This document shows, piece by piece, positions 2,395 through 60,889 of a stretch of DNA of 64,000 bases (position 1 is its first letter; each line of letters begins with the position of its first letter). This DNA is from Patiria miniata. Lineage: Eukaryota. The stretch is taken from assembly GCF_015706575.1 (NCBI RefSeq), contig NW_024037061.1:915897-979896 (forward strand), written 5' to 3'. The position numbers were made by a program, and so were the translations under genes. A model generated the notes under the pieces. It was not told the origin of the DNA. It did not search any database and saw nothing but the letters and a program-made list of their open reading frames with translations.

Positions 2395-2845
2395 TATGGA
2401 TGGGACACCAGTCCATTGCAGGTTACTCCCATGTAATGACGGCATCCATTTATACTCCAGGGTGGAGAGAGGCTAGTGGGGGGTGAAGTATGCTCACCCA
2501 ATTAATGAGTAAGGACACAACATACAGGGTGAGTAAAAAAACCCGAAACCCAAACTTTTTGTGATCCGTGGACAGAACTTTTAAATGGTGGTTGTGTTCA
2601 AAATTCCGTAAGTTGAAAAGTACATCAGTGATTTGAATGATTTGTATACTAAAAGAAAGCTTATGAATTGGGCTTTCATATCCTAGATTTTGAAAGTGTT
2701 ATATGCAGAATTTCACTAAAACAATGGTCCCGACAATTGGGTTCCGTTTTTTTTTTTATTCACCCTGTATTGTCGGCGGCAGATTCGAACCCCTGACCCT
2801 CTGATAATCGGTCAACAACCTAACCACTAGACCACATCTCCTATC
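2395..2845 (-). mobile_element. tRNA-derived SINE (tRNA-like head with GGTTCGAATC T-loop at 2770-2845, body at 2395-2524), interrupted by a nested MITE
   Basis: It is collinear with the uninterrupted copy at 40860-41030. The head shows the tRNA-like boxes GTGGTCTAGTGGTTAGG and GGGGTTCGAATCTGCCGCCG on the minus strand. Confidence 0.6.
2525..2767. mobile_element. MITE with 17-bp TIRs (CAGGGTGAGTAAAAAAA / ...TTTTTTTTTATTCACCCTG) and TA target-site duplication, nested in the SINE
   Basis: The TIRs are visible. A TA dinucleotide flanks both ends (2523-2524 and 2768-2769). The SINE copy at 40860-41030 is uninterrupted at the same position. Confidence 0.65.
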
Positions 2846-2859
2846 CTTCCCTAAGAACC

Positions 2860-3090
2860 ATGCAAATAACCCAGGCCAACGGTCCGGCCAACGGAGTGGT
2901 CCAGCAGCAGAGCCCCGCCGTAGGCTACGGGCGCCGAGCCGCCAAGACACCCCATGGAGTGCCCTGTCTGCTTGTAGTCTCCATCTTCCACCTCGTTCTC
3001 GGAGTACTGAGCGTTGGACTCGGCGTCGCAGCAATCATCCTTCAGTGTGCGTTTTATGAGTCCGGGTGGGCGATCTGGAGTGGAACCCTG
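2860..3090 (+). CDS. MS4A/CD20-like tetraspan membrane protein, exon 1 (ATG at 2860; N-terminus plus TM1)
   Basis: ATG at 2860 in an aaccATGc context. The open frame runs to a GTAAGT donor at 3091. The hydrophobic stretch IFHLVLGVLSVGLGVAAIIL resembles CD20 TM1 (LFHIALGGLL). The exon ends in phase 0. Confidence 0.72.
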
Positions 3091-4626: not shown

Positions 4627-4789
4627 GTAGGCATAATCAATCTTTTTTTAAATAATATTATTACTTTTTCTAAAATTAGGAGGCGGGGGGATCAAAGGTA
4701 TTTCAAATAAGTTCGAGTTAATTACAAGTCAATTAATTTCACATCGCTTTTGAGTCTTTGTTAGAATATAGTATCAGATTGCCATCTGG

Positions 4790-5045
4790 CTTGAGACCGG
4801 ATGGTTTCAGATAACTTGTGTCAAGCTGACTTACGATTGACCTGCAATCGATTTGTGATTGACTTGTGATGGATTGTGATGGATTTTTGATTGACTTGTG
4901 ATTGCCGTGTGATTGACTTGTGATCGACGAGGAACTGACTTGTGATATTCTTGTAATCGTCTTGTGATCGACCTGTGTTTGACTTGTGATTGATTTGTCT
5001 TTACTTGTGGTCAACTTGTGATTACTTGAAACGATTGCTTGCAAC
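4790..5045. repeat. Minisatellite (tgacttgtgat)n, ~10-11-bp unit, in an intron of the MS4A-like gene
   Basis: Direct tandem periodicity. The same motif forms a larger array at 39230-39890. Confidence 0.8.
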
Positions 5046-18811: not shown

Positions 18812-18935
18812 GCCTATTTTTTTTTTTTTTTTTTTTTTACGTTGATCAAAGAAATTGACTGGAGTAAGGTTTGGACCCGCAACCTCCGGATTGCCGTTCC
18901 GGTGCTCTACCAACTGAGCTATCCAGCCCTATGTT
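18812..18935 (-). mobile_element. tRNA-like mini-SINE / pseudo-tRNA (cloverleaf-like but with anticodon loop ACGGCAA and a degenerate T-stem) with an A-tail
   Basis: Minus strand reads GGCTGGATAGCTCAGTTGGTAGAGCACCGGAACGGCAATCCGGAGGTTGCGGGTCCAAACCTTACTCCAGTC followed by poly-A. A second copy lies at 51770-51900. Confidence 0.5.
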
Positions 18936-20429: not shown

Positions 20430-23400
20430 TAAAAACTTTTATTATCGGCGTAATTTATAGAGAAGTTAAACTTTATAGACAAACGGCGAGGTTTTGCAAT
20501 TGTGCATGTTATTAAGAAAAAGTTAGGGGGAAAAAATCTGAATTTTCTCATAATATTTTCAATTTTTTGGCCAAGATCGTGCAAATTTACATGTTTGAAT
20601 ATTGAAACATGGTTCTCATGCCTCAAAAAGCATTTCTGAGTATTTTGAAGAAAAGTCAATTTTTGGGCCAAATTCATCAAAAAAGTAAGGTTTACCCCTT
20701 ACATTTTTTCATAATTTTGATGAAAAATAAAATTTCTTCAAACTTGCTAAAAAGATGCACCAGAGTCTATAAAACACGGTCCTACTCTATATACTGGACA
20801 AATGTGACTTTCAAAGGAAAAAAGAATGCGTCAAAAATTGTGTGGAAAACGTCAAATTTATCTTTTTTCCCCTAATAATTTTATTATAACGTCCGAAATT
20901 TGAGGTAAAATAGGTCAAATATACGATATGCATTTCTGAGTAATTTGGAGAAAATTAATTTTTTGGCCAAAATTGACAAAAAAGTAAGGCTATAAACCCC
21001 TTACATTTTTTTTTCAAATTTGGCTGAAAAATTAAATTTCTTGAAACTTGCTGGGAAGATGCCTCGGGGTCCCTAGAACACGTTTCCACTCTTACATTGG
21101 ACAGATATGCCTTTCAAAAGGAAATATAACGTCGAAAATTTGAGGTAAAATTGGTCAAATTTATGAATTTTTTTCACAATAATGCCACAATTTCGGCCAT
21201 AATTTAGCCAATTTTGCCGGTCTGAATATTAAACCGTGTTCCCAAAGCCTTAATATGCATTGCTGAGTAGTTTGGAGAAAATTCATTTTTTGGCCAAAAT
21301 TGAAAAAAAAGTAAGGCTAACCCCTTACATTTTTTTTCAAATTTGGCTGAAAAATGAAATTTCTTGAAACTTGCTGGGAAGATGCCTCAGGGTCCCTAGA
21401 ACACGTTTCCACTCTTACATTGGACAGATATGCCTTTCAAAAGGAAATATAACGTCGAAAATTTGAGGTAAAATTGGTCAAATTTATGATTTTTTTTCCC
21501 AATAATGCCACAATTCCGGCCAAAATTTAGCCAATTTTGCCGGTCTAAATATTAAATCGTGATCCCAACACCTTATTATGCATTACTGAGTAGTTTGGAG
21601 AAAATTCATTTTTTGGCAAAAATTGAAAAAAAGTAAGGCTAACCCCTTACATTTTTTTCAAAGTTGGCTGAAAAATGAAATTTCTTGCAACTTGCTGGGA
21701 AGATGCATCAGGGTCCCTAGAACACGTTTCCACTCTTACATTGGACAGATATGCCTTTCAAAAGGAAATATAACGTCGAAAATTTGAGGTAAAATTGGTC
21801 AAATTTATGAATTTTTTAACCAATAATGCCACAATTTCGGCACAAATTTAGCCAATTTTGCCGGTCTGAATATTAAATCGTGATCCCAAAGCCTTTATAT
21901 GCATTTCTGAGTAGTTTGGAGAAAATTCATTTTTTGGCCAAAATTGAAAAAAAAGTAAGGCTAACCCCTTACATTTTTTTCAAATTTGGCTGAAAAATGA
22001 AATTTCTTGAAACTTGCTGGGAAGATGCCTCAGGGTCCCTAGAACACGTTTCCACTCTTACATTGGACAGATATGCCTTTCAAAAGGAAATATAACGTCC
22101 ACAATTTGAGGTAAAATTGGTCAAATTTATGATTTTTGTTCCCAATAATGCCACAATTTCAGCCGAAATTGAGCCAATTTTGCCGGTCTGAATATTAAAT
22201 CGTGATCCCAAAGCCTTAATATGCATTTCTGAGTAGTTTGGAGAAAATTCATTTTTTGGCCAAAATTGAAAAAAAAGTAAGGCTAACCCCTTACATTTTT
22301 TTCAAATTTGGCTGAAAAATGAAATTTCTTGAAACTTGCTGGGAAGATGCCTCAGGGTCCCTAGAACACGTTTCCACTCTTACATTGGACAGATATGCCT
22401 TTCAAAAGGAAATATAACGTCGAAAATTTGAGGTAAAATTGGTCAAATTTATGATTTTTGTTCCCAATAATGACACAATTTCAGCCAAAATTGAGCCAAT
22501 TTTGCCGGTCTGAATATTAAATCGTGATCCCAAAGCCTTAATATGCATTTCTGAGTAGTTTGGAAAAAATTCATTTTTTGGCCAAAATTGAAAAAAAAGT
22601 AAGGCTAACCCCTTACATTTTTTTCAAATTTGGCTGAAAAATGAAATTTCTTGAAACTTGCTTGGAAGAGGCCTCAGGGTCCCTAGAACACGTTTCCACT
22701 CTTACATTGGACAGATATGCCTTTCGAAAGGAAATTTAACGTCCACAATTTGAGGTAAAATTGGTCAAATTTATGATTTTTGTTCCCAATAATGCCACAA
22801 TTTCAGCCGAAATTGAGCCAATTTGCCGGTCTGAATATTAAATCGTGATACCAAAGCCTTTATATGCATTTCTGAGTAGTTTGGAGAAAATTCATTTTTT
22901 GGCCAAAATTGAAAAAAAAGGAAGGCTAACCCCTTACATTTTTTTCAAATTTGGCTGAAAAATGAAATTTCTTGAAACTTGCTGGGAAGATGCCTCAGGG
23001 TCCCTAGAACACGTTTCCACTCTTACATTGGACAGATATGCCTTTCAAAAGGAAATATAACGTCCACAATTTGAGGTAAAATTGGTCAAATTTATGATTT
23101 TTGTTCCCAATAATGCCACAATTTCAGCCGAAATTCAGCCAATTTTGCCGGTCTGAATATTAAATCGTGATCCCAAAGCCTTAATATGCATTTCTGAGTA
23201 GTTTGGAGAAAATTCATTTTTTGGCCAAAATTGAAAAAAAAGTAAGCCTAACCCCTTACATTTTTTTCAAATTTGGCTGAAAAATGAAATTTCTTGAAAC
23301 TTGCTGGGAAGATGCCTCAGGGTCCCTAGAACACGTTTCCACTCTTACATTGGACAGATATGCCTTTCAAAAGGAAATATAACGTCGAAAATTTGAGGTA

Positions 23401-26400
23401 AAATTGATCAAATTTATGATTTTTGTTCCCAATAATGACACAATTTCAGCCAAAATTGAGCCAATTTTGCCGGTCTGAATATTAAATCGTGATCCCAAAG
23501 CCTTAATATGCATTTCTGAGTAGTTTGGAAAAAATTCATTTTTTTGGCCAAAATTGAAAAAAAAGTAAGGCTAACCCCTTACATTTTTTTCAAATTTGGC
23601 TGAAAAATGAAATTTCTTGAAACTTGCTTGGAAGAGGCCTCAGGGTCCCTAGAACACGTTTCCACTCTTACATTGGACAGATATGCCTTTCAAAAGGAAA
23701 TATAACGTCGAAAATTTGAGGTAAAATTGGTCAAATTTATGAATTTTTTTCACAATAATGCCACAATTTCGGCCATAATTTAGCCAATTTTGCCGGTCTG
23801 AATATTAAACCGTGTTCCCAAAGCCTTAATATGCATTGCTGAGTAGTTTGGAGAAAATTCATTTTTTGGCCAAAATTGAAAAAAAAGTAAGGCTAACCCC
23901 TTACATTTTTTTTCAAATTTGGCTGAAAAATGAAATTTCTTGAAACTTGCTGGGAAGATGCCTCAGGGTCCCTAGAACACGTTTCCACTCTTACATTGGA
24001 CAGATATGCCTTTCAAAAGGAAATATAACGTCGAAAATTTGAGGTAAAATTGGTCAAATTTATGATTTTTTTTCCCAATAATGCCACAATTCCGGCCAAA
24101 ATTTAGCCAATTTTGCCGGTCTAAATATTAAATCGTGATCCCAACACCTTATTATGCATTACTGAGTAGTTTGGAGAAAATTCATTTTTTGGCAAAAATT
24201 GAAAAAAAGTAAGGGTAACCCCTTACATTTTTTTCAAAGTTGGCTGAAAAATGAAATTTCTTGCAACTTGCTGGGAAGATGCATCAGGGTCCCTAGAACA
24301 CGTTTCCACTCTTACATTGGACAGATATGCCTTTCAAAAGGAAATATAACGTCGAAAATTTGAGGTAAAATTGGTCAAATTTATGAATTTTTTAACCAAT
24401 AATGCCACAATTTCGGCACAAATTTAGCCAATTTTGCCGGTCTGAATATTAAATCGTGATCCCAAAGCCTTTATATGCATTTCTGAGTAGTTTGGAGAAA
24501 ATTCATTTTTTGGCCAAAATTGAAAAAAAAGTAAGGCTAACCCCTTACATTTTTTTCAAATTTGGCTGAAAAATGAAATTTCTTGAAACTTGCTGGGAAG
24601 ATGCCTCAGGGTCCCTAGAACACGTTTCCACTCTTACATTGGACAGATATGCCTTTCAAAAGGAAATATAACGTCCACAATTTGAGGTAAAATTGGTCAA
24701 ATTTATGATTTTTGTTCCCAATAATGCCACAATTTCAGCCGAAATTGAGCCAATTTTGCCGGTCTGAATATTAAATCGTGATCCCAAAGCCTTAATATGC
24801 ATTTCTGAGTAGTTTGGAGAAAATTCATTTTTTGGCCAAAATTGAAAAAAAAGTAAGGCTAACCCCTTACATTTTTTTCAAATTTGGCTGAAAAATGAAA
24901 TTTCTTGAAACTTGCTGGGAAGATGCCTCAGGGTCCCTAGAACACGTTTCCACTCTTACATTGGACAGATATGCCTTTCAAAAGGAAATATAACGTCGAA
25001 AATTTGAGGTAAAATTGATCAAATTTATGATTTTTGTTCCCAATAATGACACAATTTCAGCCAAAATTGAGCCAATTTTGCCGGTCTGAATATTAAATCG
25101 TGATCCCAAAGCCTTAATATGCATTTCTGAGTAGTTTGGAAAAAATTCATTTTTTGGCCAAAATTGAAAAAAAAGTAAGGCTAACCCCTTACATTTTTTT
25201 CAAATTTGGCTGAAAAATGAAATTTCTTGAAACTTGCTTGGAAGAGGCCTCAGGGTCCCTAGAACACGTTTCCACTCTTACATTGGACAGATATGCCTTT
25301 CGAAAGGAAATTTAACGTCCACAATTTGAGGTAAAATTGGTCAAATTTATGATTTTTGTTCCCAATAATGCCACAATTTCAGCCGAAATTGAGCCAATTT
25401 GCCGGTCTGAATATTAAATCGTGATACCAAAGACTTTATATGCATTTCTGAGTAGTTTGGAGAAAATTCATTTTTTGGCCAAAATTGAAAAAAAAGGAAG
25501 GCTAACCCCTTACATTTTTTTCAAATTTGGCTGAAAAATGAAATTTCTTGAAACTTGCTGGGAAGATGCCTCAGGGTCCCTAGAACACGTTTCCACTCTT
25601 ACATTGGACAGATATGCCTTTCAAAAGGAAATATAACGTCGAAAATTTGAGGTAAAATTGGTCAAATTTATGATTTTTGTTCCCAATAATGCCACAATTT
25701 CAGCCGAAATTCAGCCAATTTTGCCGGTCTGAATATTAAATCGTGATCCCAAAGCCTTAATATGCATTTCTGAGTAGTTTGGAGAAAATTCATTTTTTTG
25801 CCAAAATTGAAAAAAAAGTAAGCCTAACCCCTTACATTTTTTTCAAATTTGGCTGAAAAATGAAATTTCTTGAAACTTGCTGGGAAGATGCCTCAGGGTC
25901 CCTAGAACACGTTTCCACTCTTACATTGGACAGATATGCCTTTCAAAAGGAAATATAACGTCGAAAATTTGAGGTAAAATTGATCAAATTTATGATTTTT
26001 GTTCCCAATAATGACACAATTTCAGCCAAAATTGAGCCAATTTTGCCGGTCTGAATATTAAATCGTGATCCCAAAGCCTTAATATGCATTTCTGAGTAGT
26101 TTGGAAAAAATTCATTTTTTTGGCCAAAATTGAAAAAAAAGTAAGGCTAACCCCTTACATTTTTTTCAAATTTGGCTGAAAAATGAAATTTCTTGAAACT
26201 TGCTTGGAAGATGCCTCAGGGTCCCTAGAACACGTTTCCACTCTTACATTGGACAGATATGCCTTTCAAAAGGAAATATAACGTCGAAAATTTGAGGTAA
26301 AATTGATCAAATTTATGATTTTTGTTCCCAATAATGACACAATTTCAGCCAAAATTGAGCCAATTTTGCCGGTCTGAATATTAAATCGTGATCCCAAAGC

Positions 26401-29400
26401 CTTAATATGCATTTCTGAGTAGTTTGAAAAAAAATCATTTTTTTGGCCAAAATTGAAAAAAAAGTAAGGCTAACCCCTTACATTTTTTTCAAATTTGGCT
26501 GAAAAACGAAATTTCTTGAAACTTGCTTGGAAGAGGCCTCAGGGTCCCTCTTACATTGGACAGATATGCCTTTCAAAAGGAAATATAACGTCCACAATTT
26601 GAGGTAAAATTGGTCAAATTTATGATTTTTGTTCCCAATAAATTACATTGGACAGATATGCCTTTCAAAAGGAAATATAACGTCCACAATTTGAGGTAAA
26701 ATTGGTCAAATTTATGATTTTTGTTCCCAATAATGCCACAATTTTAGCCGAAATTTAGCCAATTTTGCCGGTCTGAATATTAAATCGTGATCCCAAAGCC
26801 TTTATATGCATTTCTGAGTAGTTTGGAGAAAATTCAATTTTTTGGCCAAAATTGAAAAAAAAATAAGGCTAACCCCTTACAATTTTTTCAAATTTGGCTG
26901 AAAAATGAAATTTCTTGAAACTTGCTGGGAAGATGCCTCAGGGTCCCTAGAACACGTTTCCACTCTTACATTGGACAGATATGCCTTTCAAAAGGAAATA
27001 TAACGTGGAAAATTTGAGGTAAAATTGATCAAATTTATGATTTTTGTTCCCAATAATGACACAATTTCAGCCAAAATTGAGCCAATTTTGCCGGTCTGAA
27101 TATTAAATCGTGATCCCAAAGCCTTAATATGCATTTCTGAGTAGTTTGGAGAAAATTCATTTTTTGGCCAAAATTGAAAAAAAAGTAAGGCTAACCCCTT
27201 ACATTTTTTTCAAATTTGGCTGAAAAATGAAATTTCTTGAAACTTGCTTGGAAGAGGCCTCAGGGTCCCTAGAACACGTTTCCACTCTTACATTGGACAG
27301 ATATGCCTTTCAAAAGGAAATATAACGTCCACAATTTGAGGTAAAATTGGTCAAATTTATGATTTTTGTTCCCAATAATGCCACAATTTCAGCCGAAATT
27401 GAGCCAATTTTGCCGGTCTGAATATTAAATCGTGATCCCAAAGCCTTTATATGCATTTCTGAGTAGTTTGGAGAAAATTCATTTTTTGGCCAAAATTGAA
27501 AAAAAAGTAAGGCTAACCCCTTACATATTTTTCAAATTTGGCTGAAAAATGAAATTTCTTGAAACTTGCTGGGAAGATGCCTCAGGGTCCCTAGAACACG
27601 TTTCCACTCTTACATTGGACAGATATGCCTTTCAAAAGGAAATATAACGTCCACAATTTGAGGTAAAATTGATCAAATTTATGATTTTTGTTCCCAATAA
27701 TGACACAATTTCAGCCAAAATTGAGCCAATTTTGCCGGTCTGAATATTAAATCGTGATCCCAAAGCCTTAATATGCATTGCTGAGTAGTTTGGAGAAAAT
27801 TCATTTTTTGGCCAAAATTGAAAAAAAAGTAAGGCCTTACATTTTTTTCAAATTTGGCTGAAAAATGAAATTTCTTGAAACTTGCTTGGAAGAGGCCTCA
27901 GGGTCCCTAGAACACGTTTCCACTCTTACATTGGACAGATATGCCTTTCAAAAGGAAATATAACGTCGAAAATTTGAGGTAAAATTGATCAAATTTATGA
28001 TTTTTGTTCCCAATAATGCCACAATTTCAGCCAAAATTGAGCCAATTTTGCCGGTCTGAATATTAAATCGTGATCCCAAAGCCTTAATATGCATTGCTGA
28101 GTAGTTTGGAGAAAATTCATTTTTTTGCCAAAATTGAAAAAAAAGTAAGGCTAACCCCTTACATTTTTTTCAAATTTGGCTGAAAAATGAAATTTCTTGA
28201 AACTTGCTTGGAAGATGCCTCAGGGTCCCTAGAACACGTTTCCACTCTTACATTGGACAGATATGCCTTTCAAAAGGAAATATAACGTCCACAATTTGAG
28301 GTAAAATTGGTCAAATTTATGATTTTTGTTCCCAATAATGCCACAATTTCAGCCGAAATTTAGCCAATTTTGCCGGTCTGAATATTAAATCGTGATCCCA
28401 AAGCCTTTATATGCATTTCTGAGTAGTTTGGAGAAAATTCATTTTTTGGCCAAAATTGAAAAAAAAGTAAGGCTAACCCCTTACATTTTTTTCAAATTTG
28501 GCTGAAAAATGAAATTTCTTGAAACTTGCTTGGAAGAGGCCTCAGGGTCCCTAGAACACGTTTCCACTCTTACATTGGACGGATATGCCTTTCAAAAGGA
28601 AATATAACGTCCACAATTTGAGATAAAATTGGTCAAATTTATGATTTTTGTTCCCAATAATGCCACAATTTCAGCCGAAATTGAGCCAATTTTGCCGGTC
28701 TGAATATTAAATCGTGATCCCAAAGCCTTTATATGCATTTCTGAGTAGTTTGGAGAAAATTCATTTTTTTGCCAAAATTGAAAAAAAAGTAAGGCTAACC
28801 CCTTACATTTTTTTCAAATTTGGCTGAAAAATGAAATTTCTTGAAACTTGCTTGGAAGATGCCTCAGGGTCCCTAGAACACGTTTCCTCTCTTACATTGG
28901 ACAGATATGCCTTTCAAAAGGAAATATAACGTCCACAATTTGAGGTAAAATTGGTCAAATTTATGATTTTTGTTCCCAATAATGCCACAATTTCAGCCGA
29001 AATTTAGCCACTTTTGCCGGTCTGAATATTAAATCGTGATCCCAAAGCCTTTATATGCATTTCTGAGTAGTTTGGAGAAAATTCATTTTTTGGCCAAAAT
29101 TGAAAAAAAAGTAAGGCTAACCCCTTACATTTTTTTCAAATTTGGCTGAAAAATGAAATTTCTTGAAACTTGCTGGGAAGATGCCTCAGGGTCCCTAGAT
29201 GACGTTTCCACTCTTACATTGGACAGATATGCCTTTCAAAAGGAAATATAACGTCGAAAATTTGAGGTAAAATTGATCAAATTTATGATTTTTGTTCCCA
29301 ATAATGCCACAATTTCAGCCAAAATTGAGCCAATTTTGCCGGTCTGAATATTAAATCGTGATCCCAAAGCCTTAATATGCATTTCTGAGTAGTTTGGAGA

Positions 29401-32400
29401 AAATTCATTTTTTTTGCCAAAAGTAAAGCTAACCCCTTACATTTTTTTCAAATTTGGCTGAAAAATGAAATTTCTTGAAACTTGCTTGGAAGATGCCTCA
29501 GGGTCCCTAGAACACGTTTCCACTCTTACATTGGACAGATATGCCTTTCAAAAGGAAATATAACGTCCACAATTTGAGGTAAAATTGGTCAAATTTATGA
29601 TTTTTGTTCCCAATAATGCCACAATTTCAGCCGAAATTTAGCCAATTTTGCCGGTCTGAATATTAAATCGTGATCCCAAAGCCTTTATATGCATTTCTGA
29701 GTAGTTTGGAGAAAATTCATTTTTTTGCCAAAATTGAAAAAAAAGTAAGGCTAACCCCTTACATTTTTTTCAAATTTGGCTGAAAAATGAAATTTCTTGA
29801 AACTTGCTTGGAAGATGCCTCAGGGTCCCTAGAACACGTTTCCTCTCTTACATTGGACAGATATGCCTTTCAAAAGGAAATATAACGTCCACAATTTGAG
29901 GTAAAATTGGTCAAATTTATGATTTTTGTTCCCAATAATGCCACAATTTCAGCCGAAATTTAGCCAATTTTGCCGGTCTGAATATTAAATCGTGATCCCA
30001 AAGCCTTTATATGCATTTCTGAGTAGTTTGGAGAAAATTCATTTTTTGGCCAAAATTGAAAAAAAAGTAAGGCTAACCCCTTACATTTTTTTCAAATTTG
30101 GCTGAAAAATGAAATTTCTTGAAACTTGCTTGGAAGAGGCCTCAGGGTCCCTAGAACACGTTTCCACTCTTACATTGGACGGATATGCCTTTCAAAAGGA
30201 AATATAACGTCCACAATTTGAGGTAAAATTGGTCAAATTTATGATTTTTGTTCCCAATAATGCCACAATTTCAGCCGAAATTGAGCCAATTTTGCCGGTC
30301 TGAATATTAAATCGTGATCCCAAAGCCTTTATATGCATTTCTGAGTAGTTTGGAGAAAATTCATTTTTTTGCCAAAATTGAAAAAAAAGTAAGGCTAACC
30401 CCTTACATTTTTTTCAAATTTGGCTGAAAAATGAAATTTCTTGAAACTTGCTGGGAAGAGGCCTCAGGGTCCCTAGAACACGTTTCCACTCTTACATTGG
30501 ACGGATATGCCTTTCAAAAGGAAATATAACGTCCACAATTTGAGGTAAAATTGGTCAAATTTATGATTTTTGTTCCCAATAATGCCACAATTTCAGCCGA
30601 AATTGAGCCAATTTTGCCGGTCTGAATATTAAATCGTGATCCCAAAGCCTTAATATGCATTTCTGAGTAGTTTGGAGAAAATTCATTTTTTGGCCAAAAT
30701 TGAAAAAAAAGTAAGGCTAACCCCTTACATTTTTTTCAAATTTGGCTGGAAAATGAAATTTCTTGAAACTTGCTTGGAAGAGGCCTCAGGGTCCCTAGAA
30801 CACGTTTCCACTCTTACATTGGACAGATATGCCTTTCAAAAGGAAATATAACGTCGAAAATTTGAGGTAAAATTGATCAAATTTATGATATTTGTTCCCA
30901 ATAATGCCACAATTTCAGCCGAAATTTAGCCAATTTTGCCGGTCTGAATATTAAATCGTGATCCCAAAGCCTTAATATGCATTTCTGAGTAGTTTGGAGA
31001 AGATTCATTTTTTGGCCAAAATTGAAAAAAAAGTAAGGCTAACCCCTTACATTTTTTTCAAATTTGGCTGAAAAATGAAATTTCTTGAAACTTGCTGTGA
31101 AGATGCCTCAGGGTCCCTAGATGACGTTTCCACTCTTACATTGGACAGATATGCCTTTCAAAAGGAAATATAACGTCGAAAATTTGAGGTAAAATTGATC
31201 AAATTCATGATTTTTTTTTCCCAATAATGCCACAATTTCAGCCAAAATTGAGCCAATTTTGCCGGTCTGAATATTAAATCGTGATCCCAAAGCCTTAATA
31301 TGCATTTCTGAGTAGTTTGGAGAAAATTCATTTTTTTTTGCCAAAAGTAAAGCTAACCCCTTACATTTTTTTCAAATTTGGCTGAAAAATGAAATTTCTT
31401 GAAACTTGCTGTGAAGATGCCTCAGGGTCCCTAGAACACGTTTCCACTCTTACATTGGACAGATATGCCTTTCAAAAGGAAATATAACGTCCACAATTTG
31501 AGGTAAAATTGGTCAAATTTATGAATTTTTTTCCAAATAATGCCATAATTTCGGCCAAAATTTAGCCAATTTTTCCGGTCTGAATATTAAATCGTGATCC
31601 CAAAGCCTTGATATGCATTGCTGAGCAGTTTGGAGAAAATTCATTTTTTGGCCAAAATTGAAAAACAAGTAAGGCTAACTCCTTACATTTTTTTCAAATT
31701 TGGCTGAAAAATGAAATTTCTTGAAACTTGCTTGGAAGATGCCTCAGGGTCCCTAGAACACGTTTCCACTCTTACATTGGACAGATACGCCTTTCAAAAG
31801 GAAATAATTTATAACGTCGCAAATTTGAGGTAAAATTGGTCAAATTTATGATTTTTTTACCAAATAATGCCACAATTTCGGCCAAAATTTAGCCAATTTT
31901 GCCGGTCTGAATATTAAATCGTGATCCCAAAGCCTCGATATGCATTGCTGAGTAGTTGGGAGAAAATTCATTTTTTTTGCCAAAAGTAAAGCTAACCCCT
32001 TACATTTTTTTCAAATTTGGCTGAAAAATGAAATTTCTTGAAACTTGCTGGGAAGATACCTCAGGGTCCCTAGAACACGTTTCCAATCTTACATTGGACA
32101 GATATGCTTTTCAAAAAGAAATATAACGTCGAAAATTTGAGGTAAAATAGGTCAAATTTATGATTTTTTTACGCATAATGCCACAATTTCGGCCAACATT
32201 TAGCCAATTTTGCCGGTCTGAATATTAAATCGTGATCCCTAAGCCTCGATATGCATTGCTGAGTAGTTGGGAGAAAATTCATTTTTTTTGCCAAAAGTAA
32301 AGCTAACCCCTTACATTTTTTTCAAATTTGGCTGAAAAATGAAATTTCTTGAAACCTGCTGGGAAGATGCATCAGGGTCCCTAGAACACGTTTCCACTCT

Positions 32401-32700
32401 TACATTGGACAGATATGCCTTATATTTTTTGTGTGAATTTTTTGATGAAAAATGTAATTTCTTCAAACTTGCTAAAAAGAAAGGAAAAACAGTCAAATGT
32501 ATTAATTGATTTCGCAATTATTTCAAAATGTAGGAGAAAAATTGCAAAATTTGCTTGTGTGAATATTGAATAAGGGTTATCAAGCCTTCAAAGACAATTC
32601 AAGCAATTTCGAGAAATACCAATTTTTTTTGGCCAAAATTCATCAAAAATGTATTTTCTTTGGCAGAAAATTGTATATCTTAAAACTCGGAAAATCGGAA
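20430..32700. repeat. Satellite array, 322-bp unit x ~37 (core 20880-32430, degenerate edges)
   Basis: Landmark ccccttacat recurs at 21321, 21643, 21965, 22287 ... (period 322). Copies are ~95% identical. One copy is truncated at ~26520-26640. Confidence 0.95.
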
Positions 32701-36370: not shown

Positions 36371-36720
36371 ATTGGATAACGATATCACACCACTACTTGT
36401 TATGGTCAACCAACAGACCAATCCTCACTGACCTTTCATAAGACCAAGGTAGTTAGCAGTGCTTGTAGCACGCACCTGATTGGACAGTAAGTTCAGACAA
36501 AACCAAATCTTCACACAATTGACCAATCCTCACAGGCCATCTAGAAGCTGCAGGTAGTGTGGTGCCTGCAATTATAGCACGCCCCTGATTGGACATTAAG
36601 TCCAAAACAAGGCAAATCTCCACACAATTGACCAATCCTCACAGGCCATCTAGAAGCTGCAGGTAGTAGGGTGCCTGGCCCAGTTGTCTGGCTAGCTTGT
36701 TGGTCTTGAACATGATTGGA
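36371..36720. repeat. ~110-bp tandem repeat (~3.2 units, each starting c.tgattggaca) overlapping the REV3L stop codon and 3'UTR
   Basis: Units start at 36371, 36471, 36589 and 36711. The segment caattgaccaatcctcacaggccatctagaagctgcaggtag occurs twice. Confidence 0.8.
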
Positions 36721-39229: not shown

Positions 39230-39890
39230 AATGACACTAGATGACTTATGATAGACTTGTGATGTCTTGTGAATGATTTGTGATGACATTTGACTGACTT
39301 TTGATGACTTGTGCTGGCTTGTGATTGACCTGTGATGACTTTTGATGTGATATGAAAACTTGAGTGATTAATGATGACTTGTGATGGATTTGTGATGACT
39401 TGTGATTTACGTGTGATATACTTGTGATGGCTTGTGGACTTGTGATTGACTTGTGATTGACCTGTGATTGACTTGTGATGACTTTTGATTTACTTGTGTG
39501 GACTTGTGATTGTTTGTGATGACTTGTGATGGACTTGTGATGGACAAGTGGTGGACAAGTGGTGGACTTGTGATGGACTTGTGATGGACTTGTGATGGAC
39601 TTGTGATGGACTTGTGATGGACATGTGATGGACTTGTGATGGACTTGTGATTGAGTTGTGATGGACTTGTGATTGACTTGTAATTGACTTGTAATTGACT
39701 TGTGATAACTTACGTTTATTTGTGATTGACTTGTGATTGACTTATGACTGACTTGTGATTGACCTGTGATTGACTTGTGATGGACTTGTGATCGACTTGT
39801 GATGACTTGTGATTGACTTGTAATTGACTTGTGATTGACTTGGGATTGACTTGGGATTGACTTGGGATTGACTTGAGCAACGACAAGTCA
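39230..39890. repeat. Minisatellite (tgacttgtgat / ggacttgtgat)n, ~60 copies, in a REV3L intron
   Basis: A direct 11-bp period is visible throughout. It is the same motif as 4790-5045. Confidence 0.9.
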
Positions 39891-40859: not shown

Positions 40860-41030
40860 CCTGGATGGGATACCAGCTAATGCCGGTACCCATTCATACT
40901 CCTGGGTGGAGAGAGGCAAGGGGGGTGAAGTGGCTTGCCCAAGGACACACATATGGCCAGCGGCTGGATTCGAACCCCTGACTCTCTGATTACGAGTCAC
41001 AAACCCTAACCACTAGACCACACTCCCCCA
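40860..41030 (-). mobile_element. tRNA-derived SINE, uninterrupted copy (same family as 2395-2845)
   Basis: Minus strand reads GGGGGAGTGTGGTCTAGTGGTTAGGGTTTGTGACTCGTAATCAGAGAGTCAGGGGTTCGAATCCAGCCGCTGGCC, then a body collinear with 2395-2524. Confidence 0.6.
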
Positions 41031-41438
41031 TGGCAATCCCATGGCAGTCCCATGGCAATCCCATGGCAATCCTATGGCAATCCCATGGCAATCCCATGGC
41101 AATCCCATGGCAATCCCATGGCAGTCCCACATGAATCTATGAACCCACCTGTCCGTGTCCCCATAAACCACTCTAACCACTAGACCACACTCCCCCATGG
41201 CAATCCCATGGCAATCCCATGGCAATCCCATGGCAATCCCATGGCAATCCCATGGCAATCCAATGGCAATCCCATGGCAATCCCATGGCAATCCCATGGC
41301 AATCCCATGGCAATCCCATGGCAGTCCCACAGGAATCTATGTACCCACCTGTCCGTGTCCCCATAAACCACTCTAACCACTAGACGACCCTCCCCCATGG
41401 CAATCCCATAGCAGTCCCACAGGAATCTATGTACCCAC
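41013..41438. repeat. Composite tandem structure: (catggcaatc)n 10-bp minisatellite blocks (41020-41130, 41195-41330) alternating with two extra copies of the 3' end plus donor of the REV3L motif-C exon
   Basis: The segment cccacaggaatctatg(a/t)acccacct(g/a)tccgtgtccccataaaccactct occurs at 41126-41175, 41326-41375 and in the real exon at 41418-41466. Confidence 0.8.
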
Positions 41439-41548
41439 CTATCCGTGTCCCCATAAACCACTCTGGCTCCCCACTTCTTAGTGCTTTCCACCATATGAAT
41501 GGCTCTCTCCAGTGTCTCACGTCCCTTTCTCACCACGCTGTCACCAAC
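41439..41548 (-). CDS. REV3L: REV3L polymerase motif C exon (VGDSVVRKGRETLERAIHMVESTKKWGARVVYGDTDS)
   Basis: Acceptor ctgacag| and donor AG|GTGGGT. The catalytic YGDTDS motif is conserved. Confidence 0.9.
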
Positions 41549-42243
41549 CTGTCAGACAAAAAGCAAAAACGACGGAAAGTCAAACAGTTGGCACACTCTC
41601 TTCTTTGCACAAAATTATACATAAATTATTTTTTTTTAAATGGCTAATTTAAAGCTACAGCCCATCATTTGCAGCTATCCAAAAAGTAACTGACGTAATT
41701 ATTGCTGTAAAGCATACTTGGTTTTATAGATAGTGATGGGACTAAACTCCCTGTGAAATTATTCTTTCTGGCAAGCTTTCATTTTGAAAAAAACAACGAA
41801 AGAAGGCCATTTCCAATGATGGGTCTAAAGAAGCTTTCTTGGAAATTTCCGTTAATAGTTCGTTTTAAATTCGGCGAAGCGCGCGCAAGCGTTGACAAGA
41901 TGCACACGCGCGCGCAGTTGCTGTAATTCGTCGGTTCAGTGCGCGACATCGCATAGCTGCAATCAGCTCAGTGAGAACGTGTCTCAGACGCTGAATTCAG
42001 GCCCAATTCAAAAACATGACTCAACAACTTTGATTTGAAATCGAGATCCTAGATTATTGTTTTCTCGGAACATACAGCATTCACTGAGATAAAACCTCAT
42101 CAGGTTAGTTGTTCAGCACCCTTCTTAAGATTTTGAGCACTTTTGTTGCTTCAAACGAACAAAATGCACAAATTACAAATGGACGCTATCTTTATATTAT
42201 CCAAACCATGATGTTAACTAGTAGGGTCTGGTTTGGGACCTAC

Positions 42244-44229: not shown

Positions 44230-45120
44230 AACAGTGACATTACGGGGTCATCCTATACAATAGCACCCTGGCTCACAGGGACAAGCAAAGGTGGCAGTAC
44301 AGGGTAATCCTATACAATAGCACTGCCCAGCTCACAAGTGACGGTCAGTTAGTGAGTCAGGGATTGACAAGCAAAAATGGCTTTACAGGGTTATCCTATA
44401 CAATAGCACTGCCCAGCTCACAAGTGACGGTCAGTTAGTGAGTCAGGGATTGACAAGCAAAAGTGGCGTTACAGTGTAATCCTATACAATAACACTGCCC
44501 AGCTCACAAGTGACGGTCAGTTAGTGAGTCAGGGATTGACAAGCAAAAATGGCGTTACAGTGTAATCCTATACAATAACACTGCCCGGCTCACAAGTGAC
44601 TGTCAGTTAGTGAGTCAGGGATTGACAAGCAAAAATGGCGTTACAGTGTAATCCTATACAATAGCACTGCCCGGCTCACAAGTGACAGTCAGTTAGTGAG
44701 TCAGGGATTGACAAGCAAAAATGGCGTTACAGGGTAATCCTATACAATAGCACTGCCCAGCTCACAAGTAACGGTCAGTTAGTGAGTCAGGGATTGACAA
44801 GCAAAAATGGCTTTACAGGGTTATCCTATACAATAGCACTGCCCGGCTCACAGGTGAGGGTCAGTTAGTGAGTCACGGATGGACAAGCAAAAATGGCATT
44901 ACAGGCGGGTTATCCTATACAATAGCACTGCCCGGCACACAAGTGACAGTCACTTAGTTAGTTGGTGTTCAGTCAGTGAATACAGCGGACTATAGGTTGG
45001 CCCTCTCGTGGGCCAGCAAAAGTGGCCTTAGGGGGTAATCCTATACAATAGCACTGCCCAGCTCACAACTGACAGTCACTTCGTCAGTGAGATAGTCAGT
45101 GACGTACAGCAGACTATAGG
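44230..45120 (+). repeat. 86-bp tandem repeat (~8-10 units) derived from the gggtaatcctatacaatagcactgccc interspersed element
   Basis: cctatacaat recurs at 44309, 44395, 44481, 44567 ... (period 86). A single-copy element head lies at 44060-44230. Confidence 0.85.
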
Positions 45121-46789: not shown

Positions 46790-47395
46790 AAAAGATATTG
46801 TATGTATTTTTGGCCTCAACAAAACAGTTAAATAAGTCACATGGCAAAAGCTACGGTATGGTACTTTGGCCAAAGTGGAAAAAGTGGTGTTCATTTGGGC
46901 AAAAATGGCAAAAACTATGGTATTTTTGGCAACGTGGCAAAAGCTGTTGTCATTATGGTAACATGGCAAAACCTATGGCATTTTTGGGCAATGTGGCAGA
47001 AGCTGTTGCTATTTTGGCTACGTAGAAAAAGCTATGGTATTTTGGGCAACATGGCAAAAGCTATAGTATTTTGGGAAATATGGCGAAAGCTGTTGCTATT
47101 TTGGCAACATGGCAAAAGCTATGGTATTTTGGGAAACATGGTAAAATTAAAAGCTATGGTATTTCGGGCAAGGTGGCAAAAGCTACAGTATTTTAGCAAC
47201 CGTTGCAAAAGCCGTGGTATTTTGGGCAAGGTGGCAAAAGCAATGGTATTTTGGGCAAGGTGGCAAAAGCCATGGTATTCTAGCCAACGTTGCAAAAGCT
47301 GTTGAATTTTGGGCAACGCGGCAATACCCATGGTATCTGGGGCAACATGGCAAAACCTATACTATGTATTGGCCCCACTTGCAGGTCCCAAAGAG
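46790..47395. repeat. ~30-bp minisatellite (ggcaa[c/g].tggcaaaagc.atggtattttg)n, ~20 copies, in a REV3L intron
   Basis: Direct periodicity. It generates the spurious plus-strand ORFs 46729-47405 (MAKATVWYFGQ...). Confidence 0.85.
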
Positions 47396-51769: not shown

Positions 51770-51900
51770 GTTTTTTTTATAAAGTTGAACAAAGAAATTG
51801 ACTGGAGTAGGGTTTGAACCTGCGACCTCCAAATTGCCGGTCTGGTGCTCTGTCAACTGAGCTATCCAGCCCTATGTTGGAAGTTCCCCAATTTTGCTTT
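51770..51900 (-). mobile_element. Second copy of the tRNA-like mini-SINE (see 18812-18935) in a REV3L intron
   Basis: Minus strand reads GGCTGGATAGCTCAGTTGACAGAGCACCAGACCGGCAATTTGGAGGTCGCAGGTTCAAACCCTACTCCAGTC plus A-tail. The long ORF 51777-52820 reads through it. Confidence 0.5.
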
Positions 51901-56100: not shown

Positions 56101-59067
56101 TGGAGGGTTTATGCTTAGGGGTTATCTCAACAATGCCTTCAGAAGCATGTTGTGCCCTCCTTGAGCTATCCCTGTCGATACTTGGTGACCAGCACCTGGG
56201 CGGTGAGCCCTCTCTTTCATTTCTGTGGGGAGAAAAGTAACCCAGGTTCCACATGGCGTCCCTGTAGAGAGTGGGCTCACTGTCGTCATCATGGATGCTG
56301 GAATGATGCCCATTCACAGTGGTAGGGACAGGTTCAGGTCTAGAGCGAGGCCGGTGTTGGTCATTTGTGGAGACACTTGTGGACAACTGGCTATCAGTTG
56401 CCTTGGTCACAGGTGATTGCCTGGTATCTGACTGAACCACCTTGGCTTGGGTAGCTGTGGGTATGGATGGCAATGGTCCACCCAATGAGCTGTGGCTAGT
56501 GGCGGTAATCATGATTGGCTTCGCTGATCTGGTTTGCGCAAGTTCCATCAAGCTGTTGTTGTGCGTTGCACAATTGCCAGTGGTGGTTGAAGCTGGTTCC
56601 ATCCAGTTGGTGTGCTTTGTGCCATTGCTAGGTGTGGTTGGAACTGGTTCCATCCGGCTGGTGCTTTGCGTTGTACTACTGCTAGTAGTGGTGAAAACTG
56701 GTTCCATCTGGCTTAAACTGTGTTTTACATTATTGGTATACATGGTTGGTTCCAAGTTGGTGTTGTGAGTTTTAATTTGATTTTCGCCATTGCTCGCTGT
56801 AGTTGGCATTGTTCCAATTCGACTTTTATCCGGCTTTGAACCTATGTATGGTAATGAGTCAACGGTGAAGGACAAGTGCTGCTTGTGTCTTGATGAGGGA
56901 CTACTGAGGAGTTTGGATTTTTTTTTGCTACCACAGGGGCGTCCTCTTTTACGTGGGGGACTCTGTTGCTGCTCCTGTACTGCTTTTGCTGTTTGATTGC
57001 AGGCCAGGAGAACAGAGCTGCTGGATTTCATTGTTTTATCAAACCTACGCGGTTCTGAGAGTGGTTGTGACTGTTGATGTGGCTGAGGCTCTGGCAGCAA
57101 CTCGGTAGTTCTTGTCTCCGAGTGCATATGAGACCTCTGTGGGAGAAGCTCTACGGAGTCCTCTTCATCTGACCAACACATGATCTCAAACCCGACGTCG
57201 GGAAAATCGCCTTCATCGTAGCTGATTCTCTCCCTCTTACGAAAGCCGTAGGTCCTGCCGAACATCCACGGGTCCTCGTTACTGTTGGAGCCTTGACTGC
57301 TTTTTCGTTTGTGACTTTTCCGCCTCTCAGCCCAGTCATCACTGCTGTCACTCCCTCGGCGTTTCCTAGAACCTGGACTGCTCTTCTTAATCTGCTTGGT
57401 AGTTTCCAACGGTTCAAAGAGTGCCGTGAAACTGCTACTTTGGCCTGGAGATAAACCTACCCCCAACAAATGACTAGATGGCGTGGTCGTCATTGCAAAA
57501 TTACTGATACTACTACTTGTTGGAATTACTGAAGTGACAGGGCTGGAAGTCTCAGATTTGGAGATTCCAGGATCCACAGCTGTGCTTTGTGCAGCTTCTG
57601 AGTTTGTTATACATGATGGCTCTCCACAAGGTTCTTGAGGAGTCAAACTGAGTTTGTTAAAAGTTCTTGAGAGCATCCCATACCTCTTGGCATCTCTCTC
57701 TGAGAAAAGTTTGCCGTGTGAGCCTTTCCTACTCAATTTTCTGTGTTTGTCAGAGGAGTTTAAACTCTTGTAGTACTTCTCTTGAAGCATGGCCTTTGTC
57801 TTTGTGACGACTGTCTGCTTTTCAGGACATGTCTGCTGAGCAGGAATTCCATTGCCTACGGCTGCTATCTTCTCCAAGACTGGCATTGGAAGATTGTCCT
57901 TAACGCTTGCAAGTTGAGCTGGTGACATCAAGCACGGTGGTTCTTTGGCAATTTCTGACGCATCTTCCCTCTGCACCTCTGATTTGTCTGGGACTGTCAC
58001 TTGAACCCTATCCTTCTCTGCTGTCTCCTCGATTTGTTTATGAGGGCGTCTGCGCTTTATTTTGGGTGTCGAACCAGTGTTTAACTTTTGAGGAGAGCTG
58101 CCAAGTTGTTCTAAAGTCTTCTGTTTGGATGCTTTCTCTATCTGGTCCATCCAGTACTGCTCGTCCATAAACTTTTTTGGGGGTACAATCTTCCTTGAGA
58201 AGCTGCTGCGACGGAATGGCATAGCTTTTAGATTTTCCTTCCGGATCTGTTCTAATTGCTGTTGCGGTAAGCTGGTTCCAGAACAGGTGATTCTTCCCTT
58301 GGAGTCAGTTTCGATTGGGCACTTCATGAGCATAACAACAGGGTTCCACATAGGGTCCTTCTTCACATCACCGACACTAGAATATCCTTTAAGCTCCTCA
58401 CATCCTTTGAAATGGGTTTGGCCTGCTGTGTAAGGCACTTTTACAAGGTGTAGTTTGGATGAGCCTGCTTGATGTTGTGGAGCAGTATTAGTGTCAGAAG
58501 CGGGATCCCTCACCAAAGAAGCTTCCACCTGAACATTTCCTGGAGGGATGTGGTTTGCCGAACTCCTCCCTTGGGTGACTTTTTCTACCACCTTCCATTC
58601 AGAAGAAGATTGGCTCCGGATAGCTCCAGGATCTTTGGACAACAGTTTATCCCGAGCAAGTTCCTGCAGCCACTGCGTTTTCAAAGAAGCTCCTGATAAG
58701 ATTCTTCTCCGTTTGGATTTCGATGCAGCAGCAGGTCTGACTTCCACTGGTTTCTTTGGGACCTTGTGGAGATTCACAACCCCAGGTGGTGTTCCGGTTT
58801 TCTTCCGGATGCCTGGTTTCTGGGCAAGTTTTCTAGCACGCTGAAAGACAGATTTTTGCATTTCCCGTGTGTCAGAGGATGCCAGACCTGTATTGACCCA
58901 AGCCTTTCCTGGACTGGACAGAAGCTGCTTTTTGTGGGAGTAGGTTTTGATCTGGGGCGGAAAGGGACTGAACGTTGCGGCATGGCTTCCCAGAGCATCT
59001 TGATGCAAGTTGGGAGCGACCTTGGGAAGTTGCCTTTTAATGCCAAGACTTTTCTTCTTTGCTGGTT
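53127..59067 (-). CDS. REV3L: REV3L giant central exon (~1980 codons; Ser/Thr/Pro-rich disordered region, contains SPPRCWSP and an AT-hook-like PRKRGRP)
   Basis: A single 5.9-kb open frame on the minus strand. Its 5' end has a strong acceptor (tttgttttctttgtttttccgtcag| at ~59068) and its 3' end a donor (CATCCAAG|GTAATT at 53126). Vertebrate REV3L has an equivalent giant exon. The SPPRCWSP and FCxNPxD landmarks are conserved. Confidence 0.88.
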
Positions 59068-59786: not shown

Positions 59787-60003
59787 CTTTCTTCCACAGT
59801 ATCCTCCCCATCAGAACCATCATCCCAAGCTTGGGACATCTCTAAGGACTCTCTGGCATCCTCGTCCTCATCCTTGTTCTGCTCCTCCTGTCTCTGCTCA
59901 TCCTGCGTGTCCTGGCTGGACAGGATGCTGCCGTCTTCTGGGGACGGACCACCGTCCTGAGCCAGGTCCACCAGCAACTGGGCTAAATCTTCATCATCCC
60001 CAC
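59787..60003 (-). CDS. REV3L: REV3L acidic exon (GDDEDLAQLLVDLAQDGG...SLEMSQAWDDGSDGEDTVEE)
   Basis: Acceptor tcaccag| and donor AG|GTGAGG. It resembles vertebrate EALVHLLAGLESDG ... SLVMSQRWDSNIEEH. Phase chaining is correct. Confidence 0.7.
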
Positions 60004-60310
60004 CTGGTGACAAATGACAACAAATGACACAAAAATATGACGGACATGGCCTCCAGCACCTGGACTAGGTCTTGGTCTTCCCCAGCTGGTGACAAATGAC
60101 AACAAATGACAAAAACATATGACAGACATGGCCACCAGCACCTGGACTAGGTCTTGGTCTTCCCCAACTGGTGACAAATGACAACAAATGACACAAAAAT
60201 GACAGACATGTCCACTAGCAACTGGGCTAGATCTTGGTCTAACCCAACTGTTGACAAATGACAACAAATGACAACTAATGACAACAAATGACAAAACATG
60301 ACAGAGGAAC
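59965..60310. repeat. ~88-bp tandem duplication x4 spanning the 3' splice site and first ~38 nt of the REV3L acidic exon
   Basis: Units at ~59965-60053 (authentic), 60054-60146, 60147-60232 and 60233-60310. Each carries ...ggtgacaaatgacaacaaatgaca... plus an exon-like ccagcacctggactaggtcttggtcttcccc segment. Confidence 0.8.
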
Positions 60311-60772
60311 AAGGCAGAAACGCCATACAGTAGATGCACATACATGATATTAAATAATGACAAATGGATCCAATTTACAAAGTTATAAATGGCAACAAAT
60401 GACAGCATGGCGGAATGACAAAAGGGTAATGACACGCAGTTGATAATGACATGACCAATGGATCCATTAAACAAAGTGAAAAATTGCATCCTCATCAAGA
60501 AATGACAAACACCATGGTCTGACTATTGATGGATCAATGGCAAATTAAAAACCTTCACAACCATGAACAAAATGACATCTGCATGACAAACGTCAACAAT
60601 TGACAAATTTCAATAGAGTGTCAATCAACATGTCGATCAAATGACAAATGACAACAGTGCGTCAACTGAGAAGTGCACAACAAATGGCAATCTTTTTGGG
60701 TATGGGGATCCAACAATGTCAGCAATGACGGAAATGACTCTGACAAATGACAAATGACAAATGACACTGTAC

Positions 60773-60889
60773 CTGCTTGTTGGGAGTACTGGCTGCTGCG
60801 CTGAGAAGCCTCCACCAGCGACTGGACCAGCTCTTCATTGACCACAGGCTGAGATTCCTCCTCCGGGTTTGAAATCGAGTCTTCATCGC
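60773..60889 (-). CDS. REV3L: REV3L acidic repeat exon (DEDSISNPEEESQPVVNEELVQSLVEASQRSSQYSQQA)
   Basis: Acceptor gtccag| and donor G|GTACAG. It is 117 nt, in the same phase class as the previous exon, with related sequence. This looks like a tandem exon duplication. Confidence 0.65.

Follow-up and report, generated by a model that had tools for sequence, protein, structure and literature searches.

A stretch of about 82 bp that spans the boundary between an intron and an acidic exon of REV3L is repeated in tandem in the 64-kb stretch of DNA analyzed here (the window), leaving a row of three decoy 3' splice sites upstream of the authentic one. Taken as a whole, the array is very probably a lineage-specific minisatellite of the type known as a mirage. 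It is most likely a harmless side effect of DNA prone to form repeats, and the array itself is probably without function. The first-pass annotation had offered two readings of the extra copies, in-frame coding extensions and intronic slippage products, and the evidence favors the latter.

A tandem array over a REV3L splice acceptor

Using TRF on the plus strand, we found an 82-bp-period tandem array at positions 59968 to 60273, with 3.8 copies, 88% matches, and a score of 451. A repeat search of the window placed four in-register copies at spacings of 82, 82, and 80 nt, a copy number that comes from a single assembly and one haplotype. By both measures, the units lie head to tail and are of minisatellite size. 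The location and the four copies are as first annotated; the unit length, originally given as ~88 bp, is corrected by the TRF period and the copy spacing. The 21-mer GTCATTTGTTGTCATTTGTCA occurs four times in the 64-kb window, each time within the array, compared to an expectation of 0 from 100 shuffles. Chance is ruled out as the source of the acceptor-region repeat, and the repeat is real.

The gene that carries the array is REV3/REV3L, which encodes the catalytic subunit of Pol zeta, and it lies on the minus strand. When spliced, the polymerase exons at 38.9 to 45.3 kb matched the yeast Pol zeta catalytic subunit in the PDB (7lxd and 6v8p, E = 3e-106), and the match to Pol delta was 8e-50. 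Homologues of these exons in the databases carry the name DNA polymerase zeta. For the array region, the best match among named homologues is a "DNA polymerase zeta catalytic subunit-like" protein of the crinoid Antedon mediterranea, which the N-terminal exons also match, as expected of a REV3/REV3L gene. The Pol zeta structures and the Antedon homologue thus agree with the gene name assigned in the first-pass annotation. Pfam returned no domain matches for the authentic exon, the giant exon, or the next open reading frame (ORF), and a PDB search with the N-terminal exons returned nothing meaningful.

Each unit of the array consists of ~43 nt of intron tail (…gtcatttgttgtcatttgtcaccag) followed by ~39 nt that resemble the start of the exon. 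Read on the minus strand, every unit is closed by a pyrimidine-rich ...caccag or ...caacag, with exon-like sequence next, so that a unit joins an intron end and its splice signal to adjoining exon sequence. The decoys translate as AGEDQDLVQVLEAMS, VGEDQDLVQVLVAMS, and VGLDQDLAQLLVDMS, compared to GGDDEDLAQLLVDLA for the authentic exon, and an acceptor-like end and an exon-like start in each unit had been described from the outset. The copy at 60003 is the authentic junction and is continuous with the exon; the first ~39 nt of that exon (60003 to 59965) form the fourth, terminal copy of the repeat. The exon is entered in phase 1 and left in phase 2, and it has homologues in proteins P0121, P0122, P0125, and P0124. 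Across the array-hosting intron, the upstream exon reads …SQYSQQA plus one G at its end, before GTACAG. It is homologous to P0123/L008 (1189 to 1285), P0121, and Antedon (4738 to 4839). Coordinates of all these parts are collected in Table 1.

Table 1. Parts of the array, its intron, and the flanking exons, from upstream to downstream (a slash marks a splice junction)
Feature	Positions	Strand	Remarks
Upstream REV3L exon (…GDEDSISNPEEESQPVVNEELVQSLVEASQRSSQYSQQA + G)	60773..60889	minus	donor CAG/GTACAG; from frame translation and sequence
Array-hosting intron, phase 1	60004..60772	minus	769 nt; T 40%, A 20% on the transcribed strand
10-bp microsatellite (TTGTCATTTG)n, upstream array edge	60254..60303	minus	TRF period 10, 5.0 copies, 90% matches
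I4, outermost intron-tail copy	60248..60298	minus	two extra 10-mers; decoy acceptor caacAG, AG 60249-60248
E4, exon-start copy TTGGGTTAGACCAAGATCTAGCCCAGTTGCTAGTGGACA (VGLDQDLAQLLVD)	60209..60247	minus	acceptor use adds 244 nt
I3, intron-tail copy	60168..60208	minus	decoy caccAG, AG 60169-60168; equals authentic over -30..-1
E3, exon-start copy TTGGGGAAGACCAAGACCTAGTCCAGGTGCTGGTGGCCA (VGEDQDLVQVLVA)	60129..60167	minus	acceptor use adds 164 nt
I2, intron-tail copy	60086..60128	minus	decoy caccAG, AG 60087-60086; equals authentic over -25..-1
E2, exon-start copy CTGGGGAAGACCAAGACCTAGTCCAGGTGCTGGAGGCCA (AGEDQDLVQVLEA)	60047..60085	minus	acceptor use adds 82 nt
I1, intron tail of authentic acceptor	60004..60046	minus	caccAG, AG 60005-60004
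Authentic acidic REV3L exon (G)GDDEDLAQLLVDLAQDGGPSPEDGSILSSQ…ESLEMSQAWDDGSDGEDTVEE	59787..60003	minus	217 nt; donor AAAG/GTGAGG; 64% purine

Two short motifs in these exons are related to each other. One, VNEELVQSLVEASQ, lies in the upstream exon (60811 to 60838), and the other, DDEDLAQLLVDLAQ, lies at 59967 to 59994; their DNA is 82% identical over 28 nt. Antedon holds both related motifs (IDEEAVLSVVEASQ and HLVALLADLAT), which marks them as an ancient internal protein repeat, separate from the young array. The giant exon also contains a coding tandem repeat at 56542 to 56708, with ~3 copies of 51 to 54 bp, 75% matches, and segments of the type MEPxxTT….

History of the array and the orthologous junctions

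The copies preserve a version of the exon that the working exon no longer has. Where the decoys read GAA GAC CAA GAC CTA (E-D-Q-D-L), the working exon reads GAT GAT GAA GAT TTA. The corresponding codons are GAA GAT CAA GAC TTG in the ortholog L008 and GAT GAC CAG GAC CTC in L001, both of which are similar to the decoys, and the older exon sequence G-E-D-Q-D-L is found in the decoys as well as in L008. This resemblance makes the copies fossils of an earlier state of the exon, in effect dated ones. Since the copies were made, the real exon has acquired about five substitutions in 15 nt.

Identities among the units differ along the array. E3I2 and E2I1 are 94% identical, E4I3 and E3I2 are 88% identical, and the start of the real exon is 72 to 77% identical to the copies. 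U2 and U3 share derived changes; U4 does not have them and resembles the real exon. The oldest-looking decoy is E4, which retains GCCCAGTTGCT.GTGGAC in common with the real exon. Inner units are thus homogenized and edge units are left out, which is the pattern of tandem-repeat turnover. Because E2 plus I1 is 94% identical to E3 plus I2, the working acceptor region also belongs to the array, and we infer that the real acceptor took its present intron tail from the last expansion.

We propose that an ~82-bp boundary-spanning segment, made up of the last ~43 nt of the phase-1 intron and the first ~39 nt of the acidic exon and including the candidate branch sites, pyrimidine tract, and AG, was duplicated in tandem. 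The duplication would most likely have begun in the adjoining (TTGTCATTTG)n microsatellite, a likely slippage substrate, through slippage during replication or through unequal exchange. The array could then have grown to three extra copies by ordinary minisatellite expansion. The most downstream copy is still continuous with the rest of the exon, and splicing at its acceptor, 60003, takes out all the extra copies as intron and leaves the coding sequence intact, which is why the gene survives.

For comparison with relatives, we searched exhaustively with HMMER, using the spliced exon pair as the query; this yielded four proteins, whose DNA we compared. The closest relative is L008, a 10.3-kb ENA contig in which the upstream exon is 81% identical and the giant exon 36% identical. 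It retains the phase-1 intron and has just one acceptor there, …ttgttgaag/GTGAAGATCAAGACTTGGCCCAG, reading (G)EDQDLAQLLVDLA. In L001 (TARA) and L002 (SOLA), too, there is only one acceptor, with the junction at the homologous place. A single acceptor is likewise found in Antedon REV3L (XP_071956758.1, a RefSeq model; locus L009), and the Gly codon split as G/GT is common to Antedon, L008, and the window junction. A further contig, L007 (GCA_014845345.1 JACSEG010011728.1), is intron-less, and its reading frame continues as …SQMA-DEDGELVQLLVDLAQ through the homologous junction. The position and phase in L008 and Antedon, together with intron-less L007, match the window junction and bear out the earlier assignment of the authentic acceptor to 60003. 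The authentic junction is conserved.

At the orthologous junctions of L008, L001, L002, and L009, all four of them sequences from marine invertebrates, TRF and BLAST found no array and no self-similarity. The first-pass annotation had proposed looking for the units elsewhere; they are absent in every relative found, all of which are distant. On these comparisons, the array is not ancient and is specific to the lineage of the window, with the qualification that the relatives compared are all distant.

Four other searches yielded little. A word-indexed homologue search with a 374-aa spliced query returned 5001 candidates, none of them significant, and was swamped by low-complexity words. Exact look-up of ten window ORFs in a collection of 15 billion proteins found none of them, and no cDNA-like or conspecific sequence was found by exact look-ups and searches. 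The DNA pattern TTGTCATTTGTCACCAGNTGGGGA had 0 matches in metagenome contigs, and a related-locus search of metagenomes returned only the L007 contig. On that contig (626 to 1165), four window exons, including both that flank the array intron, are fused into one. L007 keeps two introns further upstream and misses the array-bearing intron and two neighbors, which fits a pattern of loss of adjacent introns.

Decoy acceptors and competing explanations

The exon-like starts lie at 60003 (authentic) and at 60085, 60167, and 60247 (decoys). Three upstream decoy 3' splice sites had been recognized previously, and that count stands, with the approximate positions then given (~60090, ~60178, and ~60265) now replaced. 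The acceptors of U1 (the authentic one) and U3 are identical over -30 to -1, that of U2 is identical over -25 to -1, and that of U4 carries one change, at -4. Upstream of the authentic acceptor, there is no AG between -49 and -2, the nearest one being at -49. GTCAT occurs at -21 and at -34 as a candidate branch site, and every unit has this same layout. Splice-site scoring by PWM or MaxEnt is uninformative here because the sites are identical over -25 to -1. The decoys are pseudo-acceptors whose intrinsic strength nearly equals that of the real site. With the AG, the pyrimidine tract, and the candidate branch sites intact, and essentially only +1 differing, appreciable cryptic use of the decoys may occur.

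Downstream of the junction, the sites differ. The +1 base is G at the real site and C, T, and T at the decoys. The decoy-derived extensions are T-rich and intron-like (43 to 46% purine), compared to 64% purine for the authentic exon. The purine-rich start of the latter is GATGATGAAGAT, and its ancestral counterpart is GAAGACCAAGAC. By its purine richness, the acidic exon could be enhancer-like. Given the G at +1 of the real site and the purine-rich exon, we would expect the decoys to be silent or little used. No inverted repeats were found around the array, and there is thus no obvious RNA structure to mask the decoys. Recursive splicing was considered and rejected, since the decoys read cag/CT or cag/TT and do not regenerate GT.

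The extensions that decoy use would add leave remainders of 1, 2, and 1 (for 82, 164, and 244 nt, respectively) when divided by three. With the phase-1 donor fixed, the 82-nt extension runs into a TGA at 59996 to 59994 after 30 codons, the 164-nt extension into a TAG at 59985 to 59983 after 61 codons, and the 244-nt extension into a TAG at 60149 to 60147 after 33 codons. In-frame extensions are excluded because none of these lengths is a multiple of three and all reach stops. Judging from the frame, transcripts spliced at a decoy could only be unproductive and would probably be subject to NMD.

The array matches the described mirage minisatellites, which are known from amphioxus Adh3, retinol dehydrogenase, presenilin, troponin C, BflGb6, BflGb9, and PGBD5 and duplicate splice sites without aberrant mRNAs (PMC3087553, PMC3902484). 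The name itself is credited in both of these papers to Canestro et al. 2002 (NAR 30:2871). In amphioxus as in REV3L, tandem minisatellite units (10 to 160 bp there, 82 bp here) span an intron/exon boundary, the splice signal is multiplied, the terminal copy is the working junction, and inner units are homogenized while edge units are more divergent. BflGb6 has the same geometry, joining the 3' end of an intron to the 5' part of an exon. Both kinds of boundary can be affected in mirages, and REV3L also has a donor-side array. However, the organism here is one other than amphioxus: among named proteins, crinoid REV3L comes nearest, with 44% identity over the region. The REV3L copies are also older and more diverged (72 to 94%) than most of those described. 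Normal splicing and length polymorphism have been demonstrated for the amphioxus mirages.

A second parallel is the 37-bp variable-number tandem repeat (VNTR) in human F7 intron 7, in which the first unit extends across the donor of exon 7 and the pseudo-donors are functional but silent (PMC1557585). Like the REV3L array, it is an exon-boundary minisatellite that sets out several pseudo splice sites in a row, each the same as the authentic one. In contrast, F7 multiplies 5' splice sites, the first of which is chosen by 5'-to-3' scanning, whereas REV3L multiplies 3' sites, the last of which must be chosen, and the mechanism of choice would not be the same. Tandem duplication within genes has also been described as a source of intron gain (2011, PMC3265369; reviewed in PMC3443670). 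There, as here, the duplication is tolerated since duplicated splice signals let the extra copy be spliced out, but in REV3L no new intron resulted; an ancient intron was lengthened by ~245 nt.

Alternative 3' splice sites of the NAGNAG type and longer ones are tandem acceptors that give in-frame isoforms. The REV3L array is similar in having several usable AGs in a row upstream of one exon. It is unlike them in that the sites are 82, 164, and 244 nt away, each with a branch site and tract of its own, and that none keeps the frame, all leading to stops.

It is conceivable, though unlikely, that the array acts as a brake through unproductive splicing, with decoys used at a meaningful rate, the resulting transcripts degraded, and REV3L output lowered, perhaps proportionally to the number of copies. 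Over -25 to -1, the decoys do not differ from the authentic site, they have their own candidate branch sites, and all three premature stops lie upstream of the following exon junction by more than 190 nt. It is also general knowledge that the Pol zeta catalytic subunit is kept at low levels in animals. Against such a brake, the described mirages and F7 intron 7 give no aberrant mRNAs (PMC3087553, PMC3902484, PMC1557585), the array is absent from all orthologues found, and other plain minisatellites in the same gene and window speak for mutation pressure and not design. An extension of this idea, to which we give little credence, is that the row of decoys forms a copy-number-dependent, heritable rheostat in which each added unit diverts a fraction of the REV3L pre-mRNA to frameshifted, degraded transcripts. 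If so, individuals with longer arrays would have less of a mutagenic translesion polymerase, and the independent arrays in Antedon REV3L would hint that the gene recurrently tolerates or exploits such brakes.

It is improbable that the unit number is untrue of the locus because of an assembly artifact or a mis-sized variable repeat. Minisatellites are often misassembled, and the BflGb6 mirage of amphioxus is aberrant in the draft genome (PMC3087553). But the REV3L units differ by 6 to 15%, with unit-specific substitutions and a 2-nt indel, which is not the stutter of identical copies, and a second, unrelated boundary-spanning array exists in the same gene.

Birth of an exon or intron, with a unit becoming a mini-exon or an intron being made by duplication (Rogers' model), is highly improbable. 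There is precedent in the mirage model of intron gain (PMC3087553) and in tandem duplication as a gain mechanism (PMC3443670, PMC2891723), and the units hold a weak donor-like motif, CAG/GTGCTG. However, that motif is without the consensus G at +5, a mini-exon from decoy acceptor to this motif would be 26 nt and shift the frame, and the intron is old, since L008 and Antedon have it in the same place and phase, on which grounds we rejected a new intron made under the Rogers model. Tandem exon duplication with mutually exclusive exons was also rejected, as the copies contain only the first ~39 of 217 nt of the exon and are without a donor.

The coding reading drew on an ORF at 59983 to 60498 on the minus strand. 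As reported, it stays open across the units (171 aa); the exon's own frame is a different one, and the ORF ends 18 nt inside the exon at a TAG (59985 to 59983). At 171 codons (179 stop-free codons), it exceeds the length found in any of 2000 shuffles. The array strand contains no TAA and no TGA; its only stops are TAGs within the exon-like parts, and both younger units have one such TAG at a homologous place. The ORF is open because a period of 82 (1 mod 3) puts the TAGs of the units in other frames, and the TAG copy in the real exon closes it. Its openness is thus a matter of repeat arithmetic, for which no coding function is needed. The first suggestion, that the upstream acceptors give in-frame N-terminal (internal) extensions of the acidic exon, is thus refuted: although the ORF outruns every shuffle and the unit-encoded peptides resemble the exon start, the extensions shift the frame and meet stops in all three cases, the ORF lies in another frame and owes its length to the period and to TAG being the sole stop trinucleotide, and the insertion is absent from orthologous proteins and from intron-less L007. 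In-frame alternative 3' splice sites keep the frame without a stop, and no decoy in the array does so.

The array has practical consequences. A gene predictor may pick any of the four equivalent acceptors, three of which wreck the REV3L frame, which calls for caution in annotation. It also presents, as a natural experiment, successive 3' splice sites that agree over 25 to 30 nt. The locus thereby mirrors the donor model of F7 intron 7 and could be used to ask how the last acceptor is chosen, through exon definition or enhancers and not through scanning.

Other repeats in REV3L and the window

A second boundary-spanning array lies on the minus strand at 41027 to 41419 (wider context, 41016 to 41551), where it covers the end of the …VVYGDTD(S) exon and its donor. 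The last ~26 nt of the exon and the donor AG/GTGGGT occur three times, with GT at 41438, 41348, and 41148. Between the copies lie an 11-bp microsatellite, (CCATGGGATTG)n, and fragments similar to a tRNA-like SINE head (gtggtctagtggttag). Splicing from the +90-nt pseudo-donor would preserve the frame, with an insertion of 30 aa in which the catalytic YGDTD motif is repeated, and the +290-nt pseudo-donor would shift the frame. This donor-side array is the true counterpart of the F7 repeat.

In Antedon REV3L (L009 10296 to 11351, GCA_964355755.1 OZ206126.1), ~23 copies of a 46-bp unit make up the whole intron that follows the giant exon; each unit joins the acceptor "ttttatttcag" to the first 37 nt of the exon downstream (TAATCAACCATCACATCATAACAGAATCAAATCTGTT). 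The gene family and the geometry are the same as for the window array, and here, too, it is the last copy that the annotated RefSeq model uses. The two arrays differ in intron and in unit and arose independently, and the Antedon one has far more copies and a higher identity (89 to 93%). Mirages, so far described from amphioxus in the literature searched, are thereby suggested for echinoderm-like genomes too, by the acceptor array, the donor-side array, and the crinoid array.

The REV3L coding end and its stop codon are overlapped by another tandem repeat in the window (36466 to 36677, 109 bp × 1.9). Antedon also has a tandem repeat over the REV3L coding end (L009 18510 to 18869, 86 bp × 4.1), unrelated in sequence to that of the window. 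Intronic REV3L minisatellites lie at 39242 to 39875, 44280 to 44962, and 46857 to 47360 (11-bp × 59.6, 86-bp × 7.9, and 29/58/87-bp units), and tandem repeat makes up about a tenth of the REV3L span in the window. Downstream of the gene is a large satellite of 11.5 kb (20926 to 32421), built of 35.6 copies of a 322-bp unit at 90% matches. Minisatellites are thus plentiful in the window, and the occurrence of several arrays points to a mutational habit of such genomes and not to a designed element.

ARAGORN identified two tRNA-Ala(GGC)-like sequences, at 18856 to 18928 and 51799 to 51871 (minus strand). Similar tRNA-like heads (ggtctagtggttag…gttcgaatcc) are also found at 41012 to 40980 and at about 2759 to 3034. 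These copies are probably a tRNA-derived SINE, and one of them abuts the donor-side array.
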